Part shown: positions 18,294 through 32,853 of the stretch, piece by piece
Numbering within the stretch: the first letter of the stretch is position 1
Layout: every line of letters begins with the position of its first letter
Source of the DNA: Bacteroidaceae bacterium
GTDB taxonomy: Bacteria; Bacteroidota; Bacteroidia; Bacteroidales; Bacteroidaceae
NCBI GenBank assembly: GCA_017547585.1
Contig: JAFYPH010000062.1
Location: 1,593-65,592, forward strand
Length of the DNA: 64,000 bases
Reading direction: 5' to 3'
Notes under the pieces: generated by a model
Told to the model about the DNA's origin: nothing
The model's input: only the letters and a program-made list of their open reading frames with translations
Database searches by the model: none
Translations under genes and position numbers: made by a program

Positions 18294-19390
18294 TAACCTA
18301 CCTCCCGCTTAAACAGATTACCGCCTCCTACGAGCCGCAGATAGGCGACGCTGTGCGTCGCGTGGTCGAGCGCGGATGGTTCCTCTTGGGCGAGGAGTGT
18401 GCCGCATTCGAGAAAGAGTATGCTGCCTATATTGGCAACAAGCACTGCGTGGCGTGCGGCAACGGCTACGATGCCCTGTGGCTCATCCTCAGAGCCTACC
18501 GCCTGATGGGGGTGCTGAACGATGGCGACGAGGTTCTTGTTCCCGCAAACACCTTCATTGCGTCGGTGCTTGCAATCACCAACAATAATCTTGTGCCTGT
18601 GTTTGTGGAGCCCGATGCTGCTACCTACCTTGTGGGCGAGCGCGAACTGCGTGCGGCTGTTACTCCCCGATGCAAGGCCTATATGATGGTGCATCTTTAC
18701 GGGCAGTGTGCCTACAGCGATGCGATAGGCGATTTTTGCCGCGAGAGGGGAATAAAGATTATCGAGGATAATGCTCAGGCTCATGGCTGTCTGTATGGTG
18801 GCGAGCGTCGCACAGGCTCTTTGGGCGACGCGGCCGGACACAGTTTCTACCCGGGCAAGAATCTGGGCTCCCTGGGCGATGCGGGTGCGGTGACCACCAA
18901 CGACGATGCGCTCTTGGAGACTATCCTTTCGTTGCACAACTACGGCAGCCGACAGAAATATATACACACTCACGAGGGAGTGAACAGCCGCATGGACGAG
19001 ATTCAGGCTGCGGTGCTTCGCGTGAAACTGCGTCGCCTCGACGAGGACAATGCTCGCCGCCAGACTATTGCCGTAAGATACATTGCCGAAATAAAAAATC
19101 CTATGGTGCGCTTGCCGTGGGTGGGCGATTCTGCTGCGCACGTCTTTCACATATTCCCACTGATGTCCGCCGTGCGCAATGAATTGCAGCAGCATCTATC
19201 CTCGCTCGGAATTCAGACACAGATACACTATCCTGTGCCGCCCCACAAGCAAGAGTGCTATGCGCAGTGGAACAGCCTTTCGCGTCCCGTTGCCGAGCAA
19301 CTTTCGGCCGAAGAATTGAGCCTTCCCCTGCACCCTCTGCTCACCGACGACGAGGTTGAGAAAATAATTGCAGCGGTCAACAGTTTCTGA
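18290..19390 (+). CDS. DegT/DnrJ/EryC1/StrS-family PLP-dependent sugar aminotransferase
   Basis: 366 aa; family motifs [31 protein letters not shown] (PLP lysine region); 4-nt overlap with the upstream gene. Confidence 0.9.
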
Positions 19391-19429
19391 TTCCCTTTTC
19401 CGCTCACGCGGTAATAAAATAGGAAAAAA

Positions 19430-19461
19430 TTTGTATTTCCCGCCAAAAGGGCTTATCTTTG
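19430..19461 (+). promoter_or_regulatory. Promoter of tRNA-Gln (TTTG -33 box, 20-nt spacer, TATCTTTG -7 box)
   Basis: TTTG at 19430-19433 and TATCTTTG at 19454-19461. The mature tRNA 5' end lies 33 nt downstream. Confidence 0.55.
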
Positions 19462-19493
19462 CACAGCTTTTCCAAAAGAAGGCAACAGAGGAT

Positions 19494-19564
19494 TGTCCTA
19501 TGGTGTAATGGTAGCACAACAGGTTTTGGTTCTGTTTGTCGAGGTTCGAATCCTCGTGGGACAA
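19494..19564 (+). tRNA. tRNA-Gln (anticodon TTG)
   Basis: Hand-folded cloverleaf. Acceptor tgtccta/tgggaca (one G-U pair), D arm gtgt...agcac, anticodon stem acagg/tctgt (one G-U pair) with loop ttTTGgt, T arm cgagg-ttcgaat-cctcg. No encoded CCA. Confidence 0.9.
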
Positions 19565-19571
19565 CAACAAA

Positions 19572-19598
19572 AAAGTCGAGCATTGCTCGACTTTTTTG
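19572..19598 (+). terminator. Rho-independent terminator after tRNA-Gln
   Basis: Hairpin gtcgagc-att-gctcgac followed by tttttt. Confidence 0.8.
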
Positions 19599-19649
19599 TT
19601 GTTTATATCAATGCTTTTTCTTTAGAAAATATAATGTCTCGCACTTTGG

Positions 19650-21671
19650 ATGTTTAAAAATTATATTTATTTTTGTTGCCATAAGTTTCGTCTTTGGTCT
19701 ATTATAGGCTCCAACGTGAGAAGAAAAATATATATAATCGGGATATTTCTTGCCCTTTTCTCCTGCACCGAAGAGATTGACAAGAGCAACCGTTACACCT
19801 TCACAGGTGAGACGGTTGCCGATTATTTGCAGAATAGAAGCGATAAGTATTCGCATTTCATAAGTCTGCTTGAGCGAGCCAACCTTTTGGGGTTGTTATC
19901 AACTTACGGACAATATACGCTTTTCCTTCCAAACAATGATGCGGTTGAAAAATACATTCAAGAGAAAGACAGCATATATTGGGCAACAAAAGATACAGAT
20001 GCTCCTGTATGGACGGGAGTAACCTCGCCACTCGTCAAGGAATTGAGTGATTCGATGATAAATGTAATTGCCCGCACCCATCTTATCGAGGGTAATTACC
20101 AGACAGCCAAATTCGACGACGGGGCATTGCCCAGCTGGAATTTCAACGACAGATATTTGGGCGTCTCGTACGAGGGCACAGAGGAGAGTTTTCATATAAA
20201 AATAAACAGTTGTGCGGCCATCATCGGCAGCGACAATATGGTAGAAAATGGAGTCGTACACATTGTCGACAATGTGATTGAAGAGACGAACAACTATCTG
20301 CCAACACACATTGCTAAATATAGTTTCTTCTCTCTTTTTAGCGAAGCGCTGAAAGAAACGCATTTCGGCGACTCACTGCTGCAATATATGGATGTACACT
20401 ATCAACCGCTTAATATCGAGGATTGTCCGCAAAAGAGATATTACAAATACACAGGATTTATAGAGACTGACGAAGTTTTCAACGCAAACGGAATCTTCAC
20501 TCTCGCCGACCTCAAGGTCTTCGCCGAAAAATGGTACGGGACAGAGGATAGAGAAGATTGTACAAGCCCGAGCAATGCCCTCTACAAGTTCATAGCCTAC
20601 CACTTTTTGCCACGCGAGCTTACTTACAACAAAGTAATTCCCTTACAGATAAGTTACCTAACATTAAATTACCCCCTCGCCGAGCTTATTGCCCCCGGAC
20701 ACGACTGCTACGACTATTTCGAGACTATGATGGGCAAGTTGATGAAAGTAGTAAAGCCGTTAGGCAGCACTGACGGAGCATGGGTCTACATTAACCGGCC
20801 CAAAGAAGGTAAAGTCTATAACAACGAAATGCGCAGGCATCTGAATGTTCGCCTCATTGAGCCTACAGAGTTTACGCAGTCAAGAGAGGAGTATTCTCGT
20901 TTCAACCCAATTGCGATGAACGGAGTGATACAACCAATAGACAAAATTCTCGTTTACGACGAGGACGAAATGGCGGGAAATATATTAAACGAACGTATGC
21001 GTTTCGATTTTGGCACATTGCTACCCGAACTTTCGGGCAACAATATAAGGTACACTACATTTCAATCAAATATTCCATTTGCATATTGCAAAAATATAAA
21101 AAACAATTCCAACCATTCGACTCATTTAAGTTATGAACTAAATAGTTGGAACTATATGGCAGACCAATTTTATCAAACGGACTTATTTGATATTTCATTT
21201 CGTTTGCCACCGGTACCGCAGAAAACATACGAAATTCGTTTAAGTATCAATATTATTAATTTCGAAGACAAAAGATTGTGGCCCGGAGTTTTACAGCCAT
21301 ACATTGATGGGAAAGTATGTTCGTTGCCGATAGATCTCACTGTTAATAACAATTCTTTAACATGGGTAGACGACGCAGATACACAAGATAATGGAATAGA
21401 ATTTGACAAATATTTACGCAGTATAGGATTTATGAAGGGACCGGACTCATACAACATATATGGAAAATTTGAAATGGTCCCTGCGCGTACAATAAACAAT
21501 TATTTTCGTAGAATTATTGCTAAGGCTCATTTAACCGAGGGTGAGCATTGGATACGTTTAAAATTGCTTTCGCAAGGTGCGGAGATAAAAAATGTATTTT
21601 CGTTGGACTATATTGAGCTTGTGCCACTGCACATTATAAACGACCCAACAAAGCCCGAGGATAGGCACTAA
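19650..21671 (+). CDS. Fasciclin (FAS1) domain-containing lipoprotein with a large uncharacterised C-terminal region
   Basis: FAS1 signatures: TFTGETVADYL...YTLFLPNNDAVEKYI...NGVVHIVDNVI. A GTG at 19726 would give a cleaner lipoprotein signal (VRRKIYIIGIFLALFSC) and may be the true start. Confidence 0.7.
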   Translation: MFKNYIYFCCHKFRLWSIIGSNVRRKIYIIGIFLALFSCTEEIDKSNRYTFTGETVADYLQNRSDKYSHFISLLERANLLGLLSTYGQYTLFLPNNDAVEKYIQEKDSIYWATKDTDAPVWTGVTSPLVKELSDSMINVIARTHLIEGNYQTAKFDDGALPSWNFNDRYLGVSYEGTEESFHIKINSCAAIIGSDNMVENGVVHIVDNVIEETNNYLPTHIAKYSFFSLFSEALKETHFGDSLLQYMDVHYQPLNIEDCPQKRYYKYTGFIETDEVFNANGIFTLADLKVFAEKWYGTEDREDCTSPSNALYKFIAYHFLPRELTYNKVIPLQISYLTLNYPLAELIAPGHDCYDYFETMMGKLMKVVKPLGSTDGAWVYINRPKEGKVYNNEMRRHLNVRLIEPTEFTQSREEYSRFNPIAMNGVIQPIDKILVYDEDEMAGNILNERMRFDFGTLLPELSGNNIRYTTFQSNIPFAYCKNIKNNSNHSTHLSYELNSWNYMADQFYQTDLFDISFRLPPVPQKTYEIRLSINIINFEDKRLWPGVLQPYIDGKVCSLPIDLTVNNNSLTWVDDADTQDNGIEFDKYLRSIGFMKGPDSYNIYGKFEMVPARTINNYFRRIIAKAHLTEGEHWIRLKLLSQGAEIKNVFSLDYIELVPLHIINDPTKPEDRH

Positions 21672-21740
21672 AAGAGAAACGGAATTTTACTTTTTATGGA
21701 ATGGGAATATTGGTAATAAAAATGTTACGGCCATAAAATA

Positions 21741-23994: not shown

Positions 23995-26781
23995 ATGGCA
24001 GACAGAGACAATATAATAATACGCGGTGCGCGCGTGAATAATCTCAAGAACGTGGATGTTGATATTCCTCGTGGCAAACTTGTTGTTATTACCGGCCTTT
24101 CGGGCTCGGGAAAATCGTCGTTGGCGTTCGACACACTATACGCCGAGGGACAGCGTCGCTACGTTGAGTCTCTTTCGTCCTATGCGCGTCAGTTTCTGGG
24201 ACAGATGAACAAGCCCGAGTGCAATTTCATAAAGGGCATTCCTCCCGCCATTGCCATTGAGCAAAAGGTGAATAACCGCAACCCCCGTTCGACTGTTGGT
24301 ACTTCGACCGAGATTTACGAGTATATGAAGCTGCTCTACGCACGTGTGGGAAAGACCTTCTCGCCTGTGAGCGGAAAGCTCGTGAAAAAGCAGACTCCCG
24401 AGGATCTTGTTGCCTGTATGCTCGCCCACGACGAGGGGGCGCGCTTCCTGCTGCTCTCGCCCATAGAGCTGCGCAAAGGACGCAGTGTCGAGGAGCAGCT
24501 TACCGTTTATATGCAGCAGGGCTTCACTCGATTGTATGTCAACGGCGAGGTTGTGCGCATCGAGGATTATTCTCCCAAGAAAAAGGACAAACTCTATCTG
24601 CTCATCGACCGTCTGACGGCGAGCAGTGCACAAGAGACTACCGTACGTCTGCTCGACTCGGCCGAGACAGCCTTCTACGAGGGCAACGGTTCGTGTGCAA
24701 TGAAATTCCTCGACGAGGAGCAGATGCACACTTTCAGCATACGCTTCGAGGCCGACGGCATCGAGTTCGAAGAGCCCACCGAGCAGATGTTCTCTTTCAA
24801 TTCTCCCATAGGCGCCTGCCCCGATTGCGAGGGCTTTGGACGCATTGTGGGCATCGACGAGAATCTTGTTGTTCCCAACAAGTCTCTGAGCGTCTACGAC
24901 GGTGCGGTATTCTGTTGGCGCGGCGAGAAGATGGGCGAGTGGAAGACTCTCTTCTGCCACCATGCTCCGGCCGACGATTTTCCCATCTTCGAGCCCTACT
25001 ACAATCTCACGCCCGAACAGCGTGACTATCTGTGGCACAAAGGCCCATATATTCCCGAATACGACGAGCGCATCTGCATCGACAACTTTTTCGAAATGGT
25101 GCGCGAGAATCAATATAAGATACAGTACCGTGTGATGCTCGCACGTTACCGCGGAAAGCCCATCTGCCCCACGTGCAACGGCACGCGCCTGAAGCGCGAG
25201 GCGGGCTATGTGAAGGTGGGCGGCAAGAGCATTGCCGAGCTTGTGGAACTGCCAATCACACGACTGAAAGAGTTTTTCGACAATCTTGTCCTCGAGGGCA
25301 ACGACGCCACTGTGGCGCGACGCATCCTCGCCGAGATTACCGGACGCATAGATTGTCTCATAGATGTAGGCCTCGGCTATCTGACACTCAATCGATTGAG
25401 TAATACTCTCTCGGGCGGCGAGAGCCAGCGCATCAATCTTGTAACCTCGCTCGGAAGCTCGCTTGTGGGCTCGCTCTACATTCTCGACGAGCCCAGCATA
25501 GGCCTGCACAGCCGCGACACGGAGCGTCTGATAAAGGTGCTGCGCCGTCTGCAGCAGCTGGGAAACACGGTGGTGGTTGTGGAGCACGACGAGGATATTA
25601 TCCGCGCCGCCGACTACATTATCGACGTTGGCCCCAAGGCTGGACGTCTGGGTGGCGAGATTGTCTATTGCGGAGACATGAAAGAGCTTGACCCGAACAG
25701 CAAAAGCTACACTGTGAAATATCTTTTGGGGCTCGACGAGATTCCTGTTCCCCGTCACCGCCGCACGTCGCGCAATTTTATTACAATAAAAGGTGCGCGC
25801 GAGAATAACCTCAAGGGCATAGACGTGAATATTCCGCTCAATGTGCTGACGGTTGTCAGCGGAGTGAGCGGCTCGGGAAAGTCCACCCTTGTGCGCGACA
25901 TTCTCTATCGTTCGCTGCAGCGACAGTTTGGCGAGGGAAGCGACTCCCCCGGACAGTGTGACGGCATCGAGGGCGCACTCAAGCTCATAAAGGCTGTGGA
26001 GTTTGTCGACCAGAATCCCATAGGAAAATCCTCGCGCTCGAATCCCGTAACCTACCTCAAAGCCTACGACGAAATACGACAGCTTTACGCCCGCCAGCCT
26101 CTTGCCAAGCAGATGGGCTACACTGCCGGATACTTCTCTTTCAATTCCGATGGCGGACGTTGCGAGGAGTGTAAGGGCGAGGGCACAATAACCGTGGAAA
26201 TGCAGTTCATGGCTAACATGAAACTGCAGTGCGAGGCGTGCCACGGCAAGCGTTTCAAGGCCGAGACACTCGAAGTGAAATTCCACGACAAGAGTGTTTA
26301 CGATGTTCTCGAAATGACTGTGAACGAGGCTATAGAGTTCTTCGAGAAATATGAGCAGCACACTATTGTCGCGCGTCTGCGTCCGTTGCAGGATGTGGGC
26401 CTCGGCTACATTAAGCTGGGACAGTCGTCGTCGACGCTCTCGGGTGGCGAGAATCAGCGTGTGAAACTTGCCTACTATCTGAGCCTTGCGAATGCCAATC
26501 CCACGCTCTTCATCTTCGACGAGCCCACAACCGGACTCCACTTCCACGACATTAAGAAACTGCTCGACTCGTTCGACCGCCTTGTGGCGCGCGGACACAC
26601 GCTTGTAATCATCGAACACAATCTTGACGTTATAAAATGCGCCGACTATCTTATCGACCTTGGCCCTGACGGTGGCGAGGATGGCGGCCGCGTGGTTGCC
26701 GAAGGCACTCCCGAAGAGGTTGCCAAGAATCCCGCCTCGGCAACGGGTGTCTACCTGAAAGAGAAACTCGGCGTAAAGTAG
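23995..26781 (+). CDS. uvrA: Excinuclease ABC subunit A
   Basis: 928 aa; two ABC ATPase modules ([23 protein letters not shown]; [16 protein letters not shown]) and zinc-finger Cys clusters ([24 protein letters not shown]...CEACHGKR). Confidence 0.95.
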
Positions 26782-26826
26782 TTTTTTTACTATTATTGAT
26801 AACTTTACGTCCATCGACGATGAATA

Positions 26827-26866
26827 GACAAAAGGCCTTTGCCAGCGGCAAAGGCCTTTTGTTGTC
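26827..26866 (+). terminator. Rho-independent terminator after uvrA
   Basis: Hairpin of about 16 bp, acaaaaggcctttgcc-agc-ggcaaaggccttttgt, followed by a T-rich sequence. Confidence 0.85.
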
Positions 26867-27084
26867 GCTTGCTTATATTAGTTAAAATAAGAGAGTTTGT
26901 GTGTAAATATTTAACTGTCAGCCGAAAAAAGAATTCTATACTTCATATTGAGAAATTGAAACATTTTTTAACGTAAGTTTGTGTTGTTTATAAAAAATGC
27001 ATATATTCGCAAGCATAACTCCCTTTCTTATAAAGAGAACGGTGTTTTTGTAAAGAATTATTAATTATTGAAATTTTTATTATT

Positions 27085-27450
27085 ATGGGATTTTGGGGAT
27101 GGTTGATTACAATAGTGATCGTAGTTATTGTCTGCCGTTTGTTACGTGCGATGTTTAGAGCAGTAGATTGGATTGTTTATATTCTTCTTTTCGGCTCTGC
27201 TATTTATGCTGGTATATATAATGAGTCTTTTTGGGCAGGATTTCTGGCGGCTGTAATCGGAGCGATTGCTGCGCGATTCTTCTTTGGTATTGGCTCCGGA
27301 ACAGAGGTTTACAAGTTTGGCAATAAATATACTTTGACTTGTAGAGAGTGTGGCTACCACGATCTTGAAATTGTGGCACACACTGACGAGGGTGTTATTG
27401 TACGATGCGTAAGATGTAAAGACGAAAGTCACCACAAACTGAATCATTGA
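27085..27450 (+). CDS. Hypothetical small membrane protein with a C-terminal zinc ribbon (3 predicted TM segments plus CxxC-x18-CxxC)
   Basis: MGFWGWLITIVIVVIVC..., two more hydrophobic segments, then CRECGYHDLEIVAHTDEGVIVRCVRC. Low-GC coding region. No family recognised. Confidence 0.6.
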   Translation: MGFWGWLITIVIVVIVCRLLRAMFRAVDWIVYILLFGSAIYAGIYNESFWAGFLAAVIGAIAARFFFGIGSGTEVYKFGNKYTLTCRECGYHDLEIVAHTDEGVIVRCVRCKDESHHKLNH

Positions 27451-27485
27451 TTGCAGTATTCTAAATTCAAATATCACCTTTTGCG

Positions 27486-28313
27486 ATGAATAAAATAGTT
27501 ACCTGGGGAATATATTTCTGTGTCATATTGCTCTGCTTGTTAATTGTTCTTATCGACAAAATATCTTTCCCATCGACCGATATTTCCGATGGACTGATTA
27601 CAATTGTCAGTGCATTTGTGGGAATTCTTATTACAATGACTGTGACGTCGACATTGCTTAACGACCAGAGCAAGGCCGAAAGTCTGAAAGAGAGGAATGT
27701 CAAGCATTTTGAAAAGAAACAGGAAACCTATCATCAGTTTCTGGGTGAATTGTCGAATATAATCATTGGACTGACCAAACGCAGTCTGTCGGGAGACAAA
27801 AGTGCAGCCTATGAGAATATAGAATCCTTTGAAAAATTGATATTTCAGTTCGGCTACTTACGCATACATATGGGTGAGGAAAAATTCAGTCAGGTTATGA
27901 CTAAGACCACAGAAATGTTGGATGTTTACCATAGAAATGAACTGACAAAAAAGTATAGAGAGGATATTGTAGAAAATAATTACCGCCGTTCCGAGGCTCT
28001 CAATCATGCATTGCACGAACTGATGCAGTGTGTGGCAAATAATCTGTTTGAAATCTCTACTATACTGAACGATGATATGTATTACGAACCAGTTTGCAAG
28101 GGAATGAAAAATCAATTCAGTGACAATATTAAAAATTTGTTGGAGACCACCGGATTGAAGCCAAATGGAGTGCCATTGCCTGCAGCAGAACCAAATGGGG
28201 AAGTTGTTCCAGTGATAGCCGCATCAAATGCAGAGACTGTGAAACTCGAGGCGATGGAAACGACTCCTAAAAGTCGGCAGTATAGTAAACGACGTAAAAG
28301 GAAAAATAAGTAA
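27486..28313 (+). CDS. Hypothetical membrane-anchored protein (2 N-terminal TM segments, helical domain of about 200 aa, basic tail)
   Basis: 275 aa; TM segments IVTWGIYFCVILLCLLIVLI and GLITIVSAFVGILITMTVTSTLL; C-terminal KRRKRKNK. 32 G+C in the first 100 nt (hand count). No family recognised. Confidence 0.6.
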   Translation: MNKIVTWGIYFCVILLCLLIVLIDKISFPSTDISDGLITIVSAFVGILITMTVTSTLLNDQSKAESLKERNVKHFEKKQETYHQFLGELSNIIIGLTKRSLSGDKSAAYENIESFEKLIFQFGYLRIHMGEEKFSQVMTKTTEMLDVYHRNELTKKYREDIVENNYRRSEALNHALHELMQCVANNLFEISTILNDDMYYEPVCKGMKNQFSDNIKNLLETTGLKPNGVPLPAAEPNGEVVPVIAASNAETVKLEAMETTPKSRQYSKRRKRKNK

Positions 28314-28335
28314 TAACCGATAAATTTTTATCTTT

Positions 28336-28698
28336 ATGGAAATAGTACTTTATATTATTGGCGGCATTGTGCTTCTTGCCATTTTGATGGAAACCGGTAT
28401 TCTCTCGGAGTTTATAACCATGATTGTTTCGGTGCTTATGGGAATGGGCCTCGGCGCATTGATAGGCTGGTTGGCTGCGGACAATTCTTCGGCTGGCTCG
28501 GAAATAGGAGCATGGATTGCTTTTGGCCTCTATTTGCTTTCTTGCATAGTTCGTATCATTTGGCCCGACGAGTCGGAGTGGATAGAGCTAGACGCCGGTG
28601 GCAATGTGCTGTCGAAAAATAAACTGTCGACCCGCGGCGGTGGCATCGCCGGCATTGTAATGTTGATAATTGTTGTTTGCCTTAGGGCTTGTGCCTAA
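28336..28698 (+). CDS. Hypothetical small integral membrane protein (about 4 TM segments)
   Basis: 120 aa, almost entirely hydrophobic segments. Lies 22 nt after the preceding gene. Confidence 0.55.
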   Translation: MEIVLYIIGGIVLLAILMETGILSEFITMIVSVLMGMGLGALIGWLAADNSSAGSEIGAWIAFGLYLLSCIVRIIWPDESEWIELDAGGNVLSKNKLSTRGGGIAGIVMLIIVVCLRACA

Positions 28699-28719
28699 TA
28701 ACTAATAAAATTAGATAAT

Positions 28720-28998
28720 ATGGGTTTTTTAGATTTTTTGCTTGGTGACAAATGTGAGTACTGCGGTAGCAGGTCTCTCAAGGTGCATAATCGTTTCAAA
28801 ACTCCACGTGGTGAATTTCGTATTTTGGCATGCGAAAGTTGCCGACGCGTATATTTGGACAAGACAGGGGATATTCCAAAGTGTTGGAAATGCGGTACCC
28901 GACAGACATTGCTGGGACGCAATGAGTATAATGTGATTCTGCCAAAGTGCCCCAATTGTGGATACGTGTACGATGGCTACGATTACGACGAAGATTAA
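28720..28998 (+). CDS. Hypothetical double zinc-ribbon protein
   Basis: 92 aa with four CxxC pairs (CEYC...CESC, CWKC...CPNC) and an acidic tail DGYDYDED. The N-terminus MGFLDFLLG resembles that of the 27085 gene product. Confidence 0.6.
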   Translation: MGFLDFLLGDKCEYCGSRSLKVHNRFKTPRGEFRILACESCRRVYLDKTGDIPKCWKCGTRQTLLGRNEYNVILPKCPNCGYVYDGYDYDED

Positions 28999-29024
28999 TA
29001 ATTACAAAATTAAATCTAACGACT

Positions 29025-31097
29025 ATGAAAAAGATGTTTGGTATTTTGTTGGCCTGCATGCCGTTTGCAGGGGCCTTTGCGCAAATGAACAATGCGTACA
29101 AAGAGATTGAAGAACTTGAGGTTACTGCAAAGTATATTTCGCCCGTTTCTCTGTTGGGCGAGCCAATGTCTATGCGTCGTATTCCTCAATCGGTGTCTGT
29201 GATTAATCCCACACGCATAAAGGAGATGAACATCACCACCATCGACCAGGCAATGCAGTATGTGACGGGTGTTACAACCATCGCAAATGACAATATGCGC
29301 AGCCAATATAAGTCGAGAGGCTACAATATGAGTATAATGACCGACGGACTGCCTGCGTATAACTCTTTATCTGTTTCCCATCAGTTCGATCTTTCATTCT
29401 TTGAGCAGATTGAGGTGCTGAGAGGTGTTTCGGGCATATTGCAGGGTGTTCCCGATGGCCAGTCGCTGGGCGGAGTCATCAATCTTGTGAAGAAAAAGAC
29501 AAAGTTGCAGAATGAGTTTGTTTCCAACGTCAGTGTAGGCTCGTGGAACAATCATCGTCTGGAATTCGATTATAATACCAAGCTTACAAAGGATGGAAAG
29601 CTGAGAAGCAGATTTGCGGCATTTGTCAATAACAGGGAGTTTTTCTACGACCGTTCGGCAATGTACAAGAGCGGTGCTTATGGAGTGATCGATTGGGACG
29701 CTACAAACACCACCACACTCTCTCTTTCTTACGCTTACCAGAAATCAAAGGGTGACGTGCTCTACAATGGATTGCCCGCGTTGAGAGAGACCTCGTCGGA
29801 CAACAGCCGTAACCATCTTCCCGTTGGTCGCTCTTATAATCCCACCCCCGATTGGGACTACACAATGTGGGAGACTCACGAAGTGATGCTGTCGCTCGAC
29901 CAGCAGTTGGCCGATAATTGGAACATGAAGGCCAAGATGGGTCTAAGATGGCAGAATCAGGAGAATAAGTATGGCTTTGCGGGTACCGTTACCAAGGCCG
30001 ACAGCTCTTCGAACTATCTGCGTGGATATAATGACGAGAGCCTTCCCAGAATAGTGTCGGCTGTGGATTTCTCGGGCAAATTCATGCTCTTCGACAAGGT
30101 GCAGAATATTTTCGTGGGAGCGAATTTCGAGAATTTCATCGATGACAAGAAATATATTAGCGCATACTACAAGACAAAGTTTGGCAACATCCATTCTGTT
30201 CCCGATTTCGAGATTCCCTATGCCAATCTGAATCGTTCGAAGATGAGAGTGCGTCAGGGTGGTATCTATACTCAGTTGAGGCTTGCTCTTCTTGACAACC
30301 TTAACGTGAATCTGGGTGGTAGGATGAGCTCGGTATTTGCAAGCATGTACAATTTCAAAGACTCTAAATGGGTGGATGCTGTAACCGAGGAGCACCGATT
30401 CACTCCTTTTGCGGGCATTACCTTCGACCCCATAGACGAACTTACTCTGTATGCAAGCTATTCAAGCATTTTCGTTCCTCAGACAGAGCGCCGCGAGGAT
30501 AATTCAATGCTCGACCCTCGTACGGGCTTCCAATATGAGGCGGGTGCAAAGACCGAACTTCTCGACGATCGTCTCACAGGAAATGTAGCCTTCTTCTATT
30601 TGCAGGATGATGGTCGTGCATACAAGGTGAGCCCCGCTCCTGCCTATGTGAACGGCGGAAGAGTAGAAAATAAGGGTGTCGAGGTTGAATTGAACGCATT
30701 TCCCTATAAGGGATTGGAACTCTCGGCAACATACACCTATCTTGACACAGAAATAACAAAGTCGGCCGATGGCGATGAGGGATTGGCATTCAGCCCCGTA
30801 GAGCCCGAACATTCGTTCAAGTTCTTTGCTGCTTATCGTTTCGACAATGGTCTTGCGATTGGTGGTAATGTGATGTCTTTCAGCCGCAGCTATGCTTCTG
30901 TACTCACTCCCGAACGCGACCAGAAGCCTTACTCGTTGCTCAACGCTTTTGTCTCTTATGAGATGAACAAGAACATTGCTCTCTATTTCAATTGTAACAA
31001 TATTACCGATTGTGTATATTATTCACGATTGGGAGGTAATGGCGACTTCTACGGCGACCCGAGAAACTTTACTTTGACTGCAAGATGTTCATTCTAG
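29025..31097 (+). CDS. TonB-dependent outer-membrane receptor (siderophore-receptor type)
   Basis: Start taken at MKKMFGILLACMPFAGAFAQ. Plug-domain motifs (SVSVINPTRIKEMNITTIDQAMQYVTGV, IEVLRGVSGILQG) and a C-terminal barrel ending ...TLTARCSF. Confidence 0.85.
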   Translation: MKKMFGILLACMPFAGAFAQMNNAYKEIEELEVTAKYISPVSLLGEPMSMRRIPQSVSVINPTRIKEMNITTIDQAMQYVTGVTTIANDNMRSQYKSRGYNMSIMTDGLPAYNSLSVSHQFDLSFFEQIEVLRGVSGILQGVPDGQSLGGVINLVKKKTKLQNEFVSNVSVGSWNNHRLEFDYNTKLTKDGKLRSRFAAFVNNREFFYDRSAMYKSGAYGVIDWDATNTTTLSLSYAYQKSKGDVLYNGLPALRETSSDNSRNHLPVGRSYNPTPDWDYTMWETHEVMLSLDQQLADNWNMKAKMGLRWQNQENKYGFAGTVTKADSSSNYLRGYNDESLPRIVSAVDFSGKFMLFDKVQNIFVGANFENFIDDKKYISAYYKTKFGNIHSVPDFEIPYANLNRSKMRVRQGGIYTQLRLALLDNLNVNLGGRMSSVFASMYNFKDSKWVDAVTEEHRFTPFAGITFDPIDELTLYASYSSIFVPQTERREDNSMLDPRTGFQYEAGAKTELLDDRLTGNVAFFYLQDDGRAYKVSPAPAYVNGGRVENKGVEVELNAFPYKGLELSATYTYLDTEITKSADGDEGLAFSPVEPEHSFKFFAAYRFDNGLAIGGNVMSFSRSYASVLTPERDQKPYSLLNAFVSYEMNKNIALYFNCNNITDCVYYSRLGGNGDFYGDPRNFTLTARCSF

Positions 31098-31104
31098 GAG
31101 AGGG

Positions 31105-32793
31105 ATGGATGGATTTCAGCACATAAAATTATCCAAGTCCGAGATTCGCGACTGCTGGCAACTGATAAAGCCGTGGTGGGTGTCCGAGGAGAAATGGGTG
31201 GCCAGGGGATTGTTCTTTCTTGTCTTTCTTCTGGACATGTCCATTGTTGCTGTAGGTGCGTGGCTCACCTATTGGAACAAGAATTTTTTCAATGCCTTCA
31301 CCGACTACAATCTTGACCTTGTTTGGAAACTGATGCTGCAGGCGCTTCTCATTGCTGTCTGCGGCATTGCTGCCGAGGCTTTGAGGACGTGGTTTTACCA
31401 GACTTTGCAGATGAGGTGGCGCAAATGGATAACTAATGTGTATCTTAAGAAATGGCTGAACGATGCTACTTTCTACCACATAGAGAATAACCAATGGGTG
31501 GATAATGCCGACCAGCGTATATCCGAGGATCTGAAGGAGATGACAGAGATGAGTCTGCATCTTACTTTGGGCTTTTTCTCGAATATAGTGAATCTTGTGA
31601 CATTCTCGCTCATCATATGGGAGATTTCGGGCACTCTTTCGTTCATGCTCTTCGGGCTGCAGGTGAATATTCCCGGCTATATGCTGTGGGTGTCAATCAT
31701 CTATGCCTTGTGTGCCTCTATTGTCATTGAGCGACGAGGCAAGAAGATGGTTGCTGTGGAGTATGAGCAGCAGGTGCGCGAGTCGGATTTCCGTTTCCAA
31801 ATGATGAGGATACGTGAAAATAGTGCCCAGATTGCCATAAGCAATGGCGAAAAGTCGGAGCAGAGAATGCTTAAAAGGCTTTTTGCGAAGATAGAGAGAA
31901 ACTGGGATTCCTATAAGCAATATACAAGGAGAATTACTATTATAGAGAAGGGTTACACTGAATTTGGAATTCTTCTTGCCTATTTGATAATAATTCCCCG
32001 CTATTTTGCAAAAGAGATTACTTTGGGCTCTATTATGCAGCTTACCATGAGCTTTACAAAGGTGAGGGTGGGCTTTGCGTGGTTCATCTTCCAATATAAA
32101 CGTCTGGCGTCGCTGCGTTCAATGTGCCATCGCTTGAGCGAATTCTACAACTTTATGAACATCGATTATGCGCGTAACATCAACTTCAGAAAAAGTGAGG
32201 ATGGGGCGCTGAAGGTCGATGGACTGAAGCTGTCGTTGCGTTCGGGACGTGTGATTACATCTGTTCCAAAACTGCAGATAGAGCCCGGTAGCCGTTGGCT
32301 CATCAGAGGAAATTCGGGCGCCGGAAAAACCACATTCCTAAAGGCTCTTGCGGGAATATGGCAGTATGGCGAGGGCACGGTGCATCTTCCCGACTCGAAG
32401 ATGCTTTTCCTGCCCCAAGAGCCCTATATGCCGTTGGACTCTTTGCGTGCGGCCTTGTGCTACCCCGAGTTGCCCGAGACATTTTCCGATGCCGAGTGCT
32501 CTGCTGTGCTCGAAAAGTGCGGCCTTAAACAGTATATTGCGAACTTGGATGATGAGGATATTACATGGAGCCGCAAGCTCTCTCCCGGTGAAAAACAGCG
32601 CTTGGCATTTGCCAAATGTCTGCTCATAAAGCCCGACTTTCTCTTTATGGACGAGGCGACGTCGGCATTGGATAACCGCCTCGAGGGGATGCTTTTCGAG
32701 AAATTGCTGGAGGAGCTTCCCTCTACGGCGATAGTGAGCGTTGCCCATCGTCTGACGGTGGATAAGTATCACGATCAGATATTGACAATCTGA
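31105..32793 (+). CDS. Fused ABC transporter permease/ATPase of the YddA / SbmA-BacA-like type
   Basis: 562 aa. N-terminal membrane domain of about 6 TM segments, C-terminal NBD (GNSGAGKTT, LSPGEKQRLAFAK, LFMDEATSALD). Starts 7 nt after the receptor gene. Confidence 0.8.
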   Translation: MDGFQHIKLSKSEIRDCWQLIKPWWVSEEKWVARGLFFLVFLLDMSIVAVGAWLTYWNKNFFNAFTDYNLDLVWKLMLQALLIAVCGIAAEALRTWFYQTLQMRWRKWITNVYLKKWLNDATFYHIENNQWVDNADQRISEDLKEMTEMSLHLTLGFFSNIVNLVTFSLIIWEISGTLSFMLFGLQVNIPGYMLWVSIIYALCASIVIERRGKKMVAVEYEQQVRESDFRFQMMRIRENSAQIAISNGEKSEQRMLKRLFAKIERNWDSYKQYTRRITIIEKGYTEFGILLAYLIIIPRYFAKEITLGSIMQLTMSFTKVRVGFAWFIFQYKRLASLRSMCHRLSEFYNFMNIDYARNINFRKSEDGALKVDGLKLSLRSGRVITSVPKLQIEPGSRWLIRGNSGAGKTTFLKALAGIWQYGEGTVHLPDSKMLFLPQEPYMPLDSLRAALCYPELPETFSDAECSAVLEKCGLKQYIANLDDEDITWSRKLSPGEKQRLAFAKCLLIKPDFLFMDEATSALDNRLEGMLFEKLLEELPSTAIVSVAHRLTVDKYHDQILTI

Positions 32794-32820
32794 ACACCAT
32801 AGGGCAGTATAATCAAATAA

Positions 32821-32853
32821 AAAAGGTCTTTGCCATTCGGCAAAGACCTTTTT
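32821..32853. terminator. Bidirectional terminator between the ABC gene (+) and ilvC (-)
   Basis: Hairpin aaaaggtctttgcc-attc-ggcaaagacctttt, flanked by A and T runs. Confidence 0.85.

Follow-up and report, generated by a model that had tools for sequence, protein, structure and literature searches.

Between the uvrA gene and the gene of an outer membrane receptor, a Bacteroidaceae bacterium carries four small genes, here called A, B, C and D, that at first sight belong to no recognisable family, and this raises the question of what such a set does for the cell. The genes occupy positions 27085 to 28998 of a stretch of 64,000 nucleotides (contig JAFYPH010000062.1 of assembly GCA_017547585.1, positions 1,593 to 65,592), which is referred to as the window in the following. 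A preliminary description, made from the letters of the window without database searches, regarded them as a cassette of its own, perhaps of the abortive-infection or toxin-immunity kind. The analysis presented here leads to a different proposal, in which the four genes form one half of an operon that imports a peptide made on the ribosome and modified after translation (RiPP) or a compound of that type, with A and B acting as handling or protection factors at the inner membrane; we put the probability of this reading at about 0.55. It is proposed because A and B, which are unrelated to each other, share one operon in the window and accompany the same rare RiPP family elsewhere, and because the RiPP ubonodin provides a precedent for such a route, its entry through the siderophore receptor PupB and the transporter YddA having been shown experimentally (bioRxiv 10.1101/2022.03.09.483586). 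What is new here are two uncharacterised membrane-protein families that are attached both to an importer and to radical S-adenosylmethionine (radical-SAM) RiPP clusters; no description of two membrane families common to this importer and such clusters was found in the literature.

The unit to be explained is larger than the four genes. All of them lie on the plus strand, with A at 27085-27450 (121 aa), B at 27486-28313 (275 aa), C at 28336-28698 (120 aa) and D at 28720-28998 (92 aa), and they are followed on the same strand by the genes of a TonB-dependent receptor (29025-31097, 690 aa) and of an ATP-binding cassette (ABC) transporter (31105-32793, 562 aa). The gaps between these six open reading frames (ORFs) are 35, 22, 21, 26 and 7 nt, the first three of which had been given correctly before, as had the coordinates and the common direction of the four genes. 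Upstream, the uvrA terminator on the plus strand is a perfect 17-bp hairpin at 26827-26863 (free energy of folding -30.4 kcal/mol, z = -6.1, none of 200 shuffled sequences as stable). Downstream, a bidirectional terminator that is not assigned to a strand, a 15-bp hairpin at 32820-32853, lies between the ABC gene and the convergent ilvC (-31.7 kcal/mol, z = -5.4, again none of 200). A hairpin fold scan found none between D and the receptor gene, so that strong hairpins flank the six-gene block only; neither this gap nor the one between the receptor and ABC genes holds a terminator or enough room to act as a spacer. As read from these boundaries, the transcription unit is the block A-B-C-D-receptor-ABC (27085-32793) with A to D as its promoter-proximal half, and the preliminary description, by ending its cassette at D, had cut an operon in two. 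Its statement that the genes come immediately after a strong uvrA terminator is right about the terminator and loose about the distance, as a spacer of about 220 nt with 28% G+C precedes A. The sole plus-strand match to TAnnTTTG between the terminator and A is TAAGTTTG at 26974-26981, about 104 nt 5' of the ATG of A, a candidate -7 element of the Bacteroidetes type by consensus match only, in a window in which this pattern is enriched (57 matches against 35 expected). A second -7-like motif, TATATTTG (28850-28857, plus strand; pattern match only), lies inside D, 168 nt 5' of the receptor ATG, and is a possible internal promoter which would allow the receptor and the ABC protein to be expressed without A to D.

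By their domain content, the last two proteins of the operon are ordinary members of known families. The receptor has a signal peptide, just past which a Plug domain begins at residue 51 (53.6 bits), and a TonB-dependent barrel (159.3 bits), with no Pfam match besides these two domains, and its score of 311 bits against TIGR01783 (cutoff 223.5) places it in the siderophore subfamily. Its closest solved structures are FptA, FhuE and FpvA, and against the equivalog-level models FhuE, FauA, FoxA and FhuA it scores far under all cutoffs. The ABC protein combines membrane domain and ATPase in one chain (ABC_membrane_2, PF06472, 139 bits; SbmA_BacA, PF05992, 97 bits; ABC_tran, PF00005, 66 bits), which makes it a fused SbmA/BacA-type ABC transporter of the YddA or Rv1819c type, and its best match in the PDB is Rv1819c (6TQE, E = 9e-72, residues 92-560). 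Family precedent and adjacency to the TonB-dependent receptor are the two indications which suggest that it works as an importer. None of the six genes between the terminators encodes a peptidase domain, and the operon thus differs from protease-associated import systems with their M16 protease. It also differs from FecIRA-type transducer systems, as the six-gene unit contains no sigma-factor gene and the receptor no N-terminal signalling extension. ExbB/TonB-like energising proteins and FecR-like signalling were considered as well and rejected, as the corresponding domains are missing.

The places in which A and B occur elsewhere carry the argument. Comparator loci (given L numbers below) were taken from metagenome-assembled genomes (MAGs) or metagenome contigs with 10 kb on either side per locus, and all fetched loci were searched by local tblastn. 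They are of two kinds, an uptake type with the receptor/ABC pair and a biosynthesis type with radical-SAM enzymes; B is found in roughly five uptake-type and three biosynthesis-type lineages, A in three of each. All four genes A to D are found together only in L018 and L019, identical copies of the region that come from different samples and occupy the same uvrA/ilvC site. The four-gene set therefore does not travel together, an outcome which the preliminary description itself had named as speaking against its cassette: B recurs in 29 protein clusters and A in four, C has one distant relative and for D none was found. The partners conserved beside A and B are the receptor/ABC genes or those of radical-SAM clusters.

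In the uptake-type loci, orthologues of the receptor (65-73% identity, 10 other loci) and of the ABC protein (66-76%) are adjacent in all 10 loci whose sequence extends beyond the receptor gene, and it is the accessory genes that shift position. Wherever the receptor shares 71% or more identity with that of the window (L001, L006-9, L020, L021, L024), B is present as well. Three gene orders were found, namely A-B-C-D-receptor-ABC in the window, a gene for a 59-aa protein followed by A-receptor-ABC-B in L001, L009 and L020, and B-receptor-ABC in L006-8, L021 and L024 (in L024 as far as the contig reaches). A adjoins the pair in L001, L009 and L020, so that it joins B and the receptor/ABC genes in three lineages, the window, L001 and L009/L020. 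The chromosomal settings of the module include uvrA/ilvC, rho/dnaN and integrase/rpmA. In L009, a cobalamin riboswitch (L009:966-1156, 104.8 bits) lies 4.5 kb 5' of the A-receptor-ABC-B module, separated from it by three surface-protein-like genes and, beyond these, a gap of about 550 nt; it was rejected as the regulator of the module, as it belongs to other genes at that distance.

The biosynthesis-type loci connect the same two families to RiPPs. In L002-5, L010 and L011, B lies between the gene of a 29-aa Cys-rich peptide, MLTKVFKVKDT[KN]TNAYGCCDQCGGCQCNN with the conserved Cys-rich end ...GCCDQCGGCQCNN, and five tandem radical-SAM/SPASM genes, to the first of which it is translationally coupled (4-nt gap or overlap). 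The best family matches of these maturases are the PapB ranthipeptide and SCIFF maturases, all far under the equivalog cutoffs. Across the six B-led loci the peptide is 96-100% identical, as against 48-70% for B and 58-86% for the maturases, and this pattern identifies it as a genuine precursor. A, in turn, heads a radical-SAM/SPASM array in L025/26, whose enzymes are 33-38% identical to the B-led maturases and from which it is separated by the gene of a 28-aa precursor, MKIVKVKKAHAKAAGCCDCFGGGCRCNN. In L014-16 it heads a different multi-radical-SAM cluster, and in L017 a radical-SAM and YcaO cluster with a 46-aa precursor ending CAGCFGCGLGCSGTVG. The RiPP family linked to both A and B has a precursor of 28-29 aa that ends GCCDxC(x)GGCxCNN and contains five Cys; this number, equal to that of the five maturases, suggests that each enzyme makes one crosslink. 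Inside these clusters the homologues of A and B are small membrane proteins beside precursor and maturases, the position expected of an immunity or handling protein, which is not true of the copies in the window. There, tblastn with more than 30 cluster proteins and precursors returned only A and B, and a regular-expression search for GCCD-type or other Cys-rich C-terminal peptides found nothing credible. Neither the precursor motif nor the maturases nor YcaO occur in the window or in any of the uptake-type loci, and the window region is thus no RiPP biosynthetic cluster.

Further features of these clusters were observed. The cluster family, which runs from the precursor through three to five tandem PapB/SCIFF-like radical-SAM/SPASM maturases (L010:9811-17884, also L002-5 and L011; L026:6596-10727), includes a conserved protein of about 176 aa without known domain and, in L010/L011, an M42 aminopeptidase, and is apparently undescribed. 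A DUF805b RNA motif (RF02914, 42-49 bits, gathering score 35.6) lies about 20 nt 5' of the putative precursor ORF in six loci with two precursor families (L002:6754-6788, L004:6774-6808, L010:9754-9788, L011:9754-9788, L017:4497-4533, L026:6537-6574). In L014 (2743-2777) it is found instead 5' of a DUF4177-like small gene, and it is absent from the window; the motif may serve small, highly expressed peptide genes of Bacteroidales as a leader element. Directly 5' of the B-led cluster (L010:6178-9034; L004/L005:3184-6040; L011), genes for proteins of 315 aa, 140 aa and 67 aa and for a ThiF/E1-like protein of 411 aa form a conserved set with weak matches to the anti-phage 6A-MBL cap2_3 model, which resembles a Bil-type ubiquitin-like conjugation module.

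Protein B has two N-terminal transmembrane (TM) segments that form a hairpin, an all-helical domain up to about residue 221 and a disordered basic tail ending KRRKRKNK. From the distribution of charges, its N-terminus and helical domain are probably cytoplasmic. The TM hairpin and the helical core are conserved in the family alignment, in which FEKKQ-TY and QF-YLR-HM are invariant (FEKKQETY and QFGYLRIHM in the window), and the long basic tail occurs in the window lineage only, being confined to two close relatives. In the AlphaFold2 model the protein is an all-helical bundle with a pLDDT of 73 overall and about 90 in the core. A Foldseek search with this model gave no significant match, the best E values being 0.47 in the PDB and 0.19 in BFVD, and the best of the non-significant matches are generic four-helix bundles that include chemoreceptor ligand-binding domains. 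B is a rare protein: a word-indexed search among 5.8 billion clustered proteins returned 29 relatives, and a scan of about 185,000 species-representative genomes found it in only 6, each time as a single copy. The viral contigs and the phage and plasmid records that were searched contain no B. An exhaustive profile search widened the family to 452 representatives, many of them 370-560 aa long with extra C-terminal regions that contain no known domain. These longer members (L012:9977-11113, L013:5951-7117; P0065-P0137) share the two-TM hairpin and an IFEKKQE-YH-FL signature and come from Treponema, Prevotellaceae and further organisms; in Treponema (L012), an AbiEii toxin gene is two genes away. 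No informative domain was revealed when ten longer or more divergent relatives, and the genes around two of these (L012, L013), were scanned against Pfam. Within the 90% cluster of the window protein (P0007-P0015), most members have 261 aa as against 275 aa, a difference of 14 residues that probably lies in the variable tail.

In protein A, hydrophobic segments that fit three TM helices are followed by the zinc-ribbon-like motif C86xxC89-x18-C108xxC111, and this C-terminal domain is predicted to face the cytoplasm. The AlphaFold2 model (pLDDT 63.5) has three helices and a five-strand beta domain at the C-terminus. The family alignment has a mean column identity of 76% with all four ribbon Cys invariant in six members, and the domain thus has the two CxxC knuckles, about 18-22 residues apart and conserved in relatives, of a four-Cys zinc ribbon or rubredoxin-like fold. 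Its top fold matches, none of them significant, are the zinc ribbons of eIF2-beta, Rpp21 and NrdR, and Foldseek found no match at E <= 0.001 in the PDB or BFVD, so that the Foldseek check which the preliminary description had proposed leaves both A and B unmatched. Searches of the PDB by sequence and by profile were equally without result for A, B and D, and A, B and C have no curated family above cutoff in Pfam, NCBIfam, PADLOC or PHROGs. The relatives of A make up four protein clusters in all, three besides its own. In a neighbour-joining tree, the A sequences do not group by context, and the biosynthesis-type copies of B form one weak clade. A was not found in the phage and plasmid records searched and is present on two IMG/VR contigs (L025/26), which resemble an integrase-bearing element carrying a RiPP cluster. 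The first 5 kb of these contigs (L025/L026:1-5000) hold an integrase-like gene of 402 aa and a few phage-like small genes 5' of the series SH3-TM protein, 153-aa-family protein, A, precursor and radical-SAM cluster, which suggests that the cluster rides on an integrative element. Directly 5' of A or A-like genes in both types of locus, there is a gene for a single-TM protein of 44-59 aa that begins MAKDGDI(I/V)D..LG... (L001:2569-2748, L009:5617-5787, L020:541-711, L004/L005:77-213, L014:2612-2737); the window has no counterpart of it 5' of A.

The remaining two genes of the promoter-proximal half are restricted to the lineage of the window. C has about four hydrophobic segments, and a cluster search, made without a deep homology search, found no relative outside its own 90% cluster; among the fetched loci a distant relative occurs at L005:753-1100 (38% identity, E = 1e-11), beside an A-like remnant and 5' of a B-led radical-SAM cluster. 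D is a soluble protein without TM segment that contains four CxxC motifs (C12, C38, C55, C77), which make up two copies of a zinc-ribbon or rubredoxin-like four-Cys module, and the acidic tail YDGYDYDED. The only model it passes is the generic rubredoxin-like zinc-ribbon model zf-ChsH2 (25.8 bits, cutoff 23.2), many other zinc-ribbon models remaining under threshold, and against PADLOC it gives only a match of E = 0.004 to part of HEC-08 over the zinc-finger region. No relative of D was found in L001-L013, the viral contigs or the phage records, a result obtained without a sensitive search of whole databases, and D is an apparent orphan; in L018 and L019, both C and D are 100% identical to the window proteins. 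The layout of TM segments, CxxC motifs and tails in A to D agrees with the preliminary description, and so does the absence of a recognisable family, to which the generic zf-ChsH2 match of D is the one qualification; in the source MAG, three of the four proteins (A to C) are named hypothetical proteins. The start MGF(W/L) that it saw in both A and D is there, though it amounts to three residues in proteins without detectable similarity (BLASTP E > 1). The idea that C followed by D repeats the architecture of A as a split copy is at best an analogy and was rejected, as A gives E > 1 against C and D alike.

The base composition of the cassette is unusual, as had been noticed before, and the G+C values per 100 nt counted by hand at that time (32, 41, 65 and 50) proved exactly right. 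A to D have 41.1% G+C as against a window mean of 49.5% (standard deviation 3.7), within the lowest 2.4% of windows of the same size. The conclusion then drawn, horizontal acquisition, is weakened by the finding that the G+C of B lies 7-10 points under that of its neighbours in every genome examined, in hosts that range from 33% to 50% G+C. The low G+C of the cassette is therefore largely intrinsic and no proof of recent acquisition, and as a decisive sign of recent transfer it was rejected. Mobility of the whole module is nevertheless plausible given its varied chromosomal contexts, the integrase which adjoins the L001 module (37% G+C, flank 55%) and the integrase-bearing element that carries the L025/26 cluster. 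Elsewhere in the window, the stretch 19250-21700 is the second lowest in G+C (about 40%); it begins by a tRNA gene (19494-19564), contains the gene of a 673-aa fasciclin-domain protein (19650-21671) and may be an insertion at a tRNA. An ORF of 892 aa on the minus strand (24136-26814) runs antisense through nearly all of uvrA; it is a shadow ORF as expected opposite a gene rich in G+C at third codon positions (0.67 for uvrA) and no gene.

If the operon does serve the import of a RiPP-type compound, the following sequence of events can be envisaged. The organism would not make the peptide itself, at least within these 64 kb, and would take up, from the bacteria around it that produce them, either a Cys-rich RiPP with thioether crosslinks or a peptide-like metallophore related to it. 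The compound would cross the outer membrane via the siderophore-type TonB-dependent receptor and the inner membrane via the ABC protein with its ATPase. At the cytoplasmic membrane face it would be received, sequestered or neutralised by B, which may be specific to the GCCD-type RiPP family, together with A as a more generic factor, and both proteins would do the same job in producer cells. C and D would be lineage-specific additions, D probably being a soluble four-Cys metal-binding partner. The preliminary suggestion of toxin immunity thus survives in altered form, in that A and B may handle a RiPP or protect the cell against it, without the four-gene module to which it was tied. Were the compound harmful, immunity of a "gate and guard" kind would explain why protection-like genes stand beside an entry gate; were it useful, the salvage of a metallophore or cofactor would explain biosynthesis loci without an exporter.

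Several known systems share parts of this arrangement, and each differs from it. In the Burkholderia route of ubonodin, a siderophore-type TonB-dependent receptor works with an SbmA-like transporter that has its own ATPase, as would be the case here, but PupB and YddA are encoded by unlinked housekeeping genes which the toxin hijacks, whereas the pair in the window, from another phylum, shares one operon with A and B. Microcin J25 (FhuA and SbmA) and phazolicin, which is imported by BacA (bioRxiv 10.1101/2022.04.27.489825), are also RiPPs transported by the SbmA/BacA family, with receptors of the ferric-hydroxamate or siderophore group. In contrast to the window protein, however, SbmA and BacA have no ATPase domain, and immunity in these systems is provided by exporters or target-protecting proteins, none of which resembles A or B. 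A receptor gene beside a fused ABC gene, in varying order and with the linkage kept, is known from FusABCD of Pectobacterium and YddB-YddA-PqqL of E. coli (PMC5095587); the window operon differs in lacking an M16 periplasmic protease and a dedicated TonB, in its FptA/FhuE-type receptor and in its accessory genes A to D. Methanobactin operons are RiPP clusters that include a TonB-dependent importer, and their authors suggest that such importers may be retained by strains which scavenge methanobactin although they are not known to produce it (PMC3621798). The MbnBC maturases and the precursors of these operons are of unrelated kinds, and the importer gene is part of the biosynthetic operon, whereas uptake and biosynthesis genes are here never seen together and are linked by A and B only. 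A survey of RiPP clusters in Bacteroidales found no homologues of known immunity proteins in the curated clusters (PMC10352776). The closest solved relative of the ABC protein, Rv1819c of M. tuberculosis (PDB 6TQE/6TQF), has the same SbmA/BacA-like membrane domain with a fused ATPase and differs in that mycobacteria have no TonB-dependent receptor to go with it. Its substrates are cobalamin and bleomycin.

A number of observations weigh against RiPP import. Receptor/ABC pairs are missing from the 10 kb on either side of each biosynthesis-type locus, as biosynthesis genes are from the surroundings of the uptake-type loci, and with the two sets of genes apart, the link between them is made by the shared A and B families only. 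Two more divergent receptor/ABC pairs (L022, L023; 65-67% identity) have neither A nor B, which shows that the accessories are dispensable. No exporter was seen in the biosynthesis-type loci, although a secreted product would need one. The comparators, all MAG or metagenome contigs, represent a few lineages only. When the DNA 5' of nine uptake-type loci was searched for a common operator or Fur box, nothing better than 6-8 mismatches in 19 positions, in AT-rich DNA, was found, and an Rfam scan of the leader and operon of the window found no riboswitch. A is equally conserved beside three unrelated precursor types and groups without regard to context in its tree; a generic role, or an association by position within a variable island, accounts for this better than the recognition of a particular peptide would. 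In L014 and L017 it lies 92-102 nt from the first radical-SAM gene and may belong with its upstream neighbours there, the 59-aa, DUF4177-like, YidD-like and SH3-TM proteins.

These points are taken furthest by an explanation which we regard as unlikely, that of an ordinary operon for the uptake of a xenosiderophore (or a corrinoid), in which A to D are small fast-evolving ORFs in a variable slot and their recurrence beside radical-SAM genes reflects a shared position in islands. The receptor is indeed a bona fide member of the siderophore subfamily, pairs without A or B exist, C and D are essentially orphans, and A, whose sequence does not track context, is always found among other small membrane genes, with integrases near it in L001 and L025/26. 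Import of cobalamin by Rv1819c-type transporters and the riboswitch of L009 together give a weak hint of a corrinoid link in one lineage, set against the three genes and the 550 nt that lie between this riboswitch and the module, and against a window leader with neither riboswitch nor Fur box. Chance company in a variable slot is also hard to reconcile with the behaviour of B, which stays next to the receptor/ABC genes in three different gene orders and in four or more chromosomal contexts and, in the radical-SAM loci, shows translational coupling to the first maturase, nor does it account for two unrelated families of one operon that each lead to the same rare precursor family. The preliminary idea of a self-contained four-gene anti-phage, abortive-infection or toxin-antitoxin module has become highly improbable. 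Small membrane proteins and zinc ribbons are common in such systems, longer relatives of B occur in variable regions, once by the AbiEii toxin gene mentioned above, Bil-like E1/E2 genes precede some B-led clusters, and two A-bearing contigs are classed as viral by IMG/VR. However, the four genes are never together outside one strain, their conserved partners are genes of transport or biosynthesis, and no defence genes flank the cassette in the window, where uvrA lies 5' and receptor, ABC gene and ilvC lie 3'. PADLOC-DB v2 gives no match for A to C and only the weak zinc-finger match for D, PHROGs gives none, no B was found among the viral contigs and plasmid records searched, and neither A nor D was found in the phage records.

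Two further explanations assign a more specific function to individual proteins, and we give little credence to either. The four-Cys domains of A and D might bind iron like rubredoxins and pass electrons to the radical-SAM enzymes of biosynthetic clusters or, in the uptake operon, to the imported ligand, for reductive metal release or disulfide reduction. This would suit the CxxCG and CPxCG knuckles, the best matches of D, which are rubredoxin-like (zf-ChsH2, the DVU_1557 redox protein, rubrerythrin type), the siderophore type of the receptor, the context-independent conservation of A and the fact that in the biosynthesis-type loci, with each of the precursor types, the enzyme gene that comes first behind A is a radical-SAM gene (with a short precursor ORF between them in L026). 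The same knuckles define ordinary zinc ribbons, however, to which the top non-significant fold matches of A belong, and no rubredoxin family is above threshold for A; B, which has no cofactor motif, is left unexplained, and D is absent from all other loci. Alternatively, B, with or without A, might be a membrane-tethered sensor of the imported or nascent peptide that controls the adjacent operon by autoinduction or in a quorum-type manner. Ranthipeptides are linked to signalling, and a four-helix-bundle cytoplasmic domain with chemoreceptor-like fold matches, a basic tail in the window lineage and a position at the 5' end of both operon types with a single copy per genome in the species-representative scan would all fit such a role. 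Against it stand the lack of a DNA-binding, kinase or other output domain in B, the restriction of the tail to two close relatives, fold matches with E > 0.4, and a receptor and operon without transducer-type extension and without sigma or anti-sigma gene.

RiPP import with A and B as handling or protection factors is the reading retained here, and it can be extended to a more ambitious proposal, which is tentative and rather doubtful as a whole. According to this, A and B would be two undescribed families that couple physically to a dedicated TonB-receptor/YddA-type importer, for "gate and guard" or for salvage, and serve a new family of heavily thioether-crosslinked Cys-rich RiPPs which gut Bacteroidales exchange with one another and which have the core GCCDxCGGCxCNN with five Cys and up to five maturases. 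In producers, A or B would then be part of the biosynthetic cluster, and in non-producers such as this organism they would stand beside the importer, in order to exploit a public good or to survive the peptide. If this were true, no dedicated operon for the import of a RiPP and protection from it would have been described in Bacteroidales before this one.

Radical-SAM-based RiPP clusters are the commonest predicted natural-product loci in gut Bacteroidales, and to our knowledge almost nothing is known of how their products are sensed, taken up or tolerated. Should the association of A and B with both kinds of locus be positional only, the window would contain an ordinary siderophore-type uptake operon with orphan small genes. 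If the link made by A and B is real, it would provide a genomic handle on which strains respond to which peptide and on the natural role of SbmA/YddA-type transporters, which is a long-standing question, together with a small gene set for testing RiPP-mediated competition or sharing in the gut.

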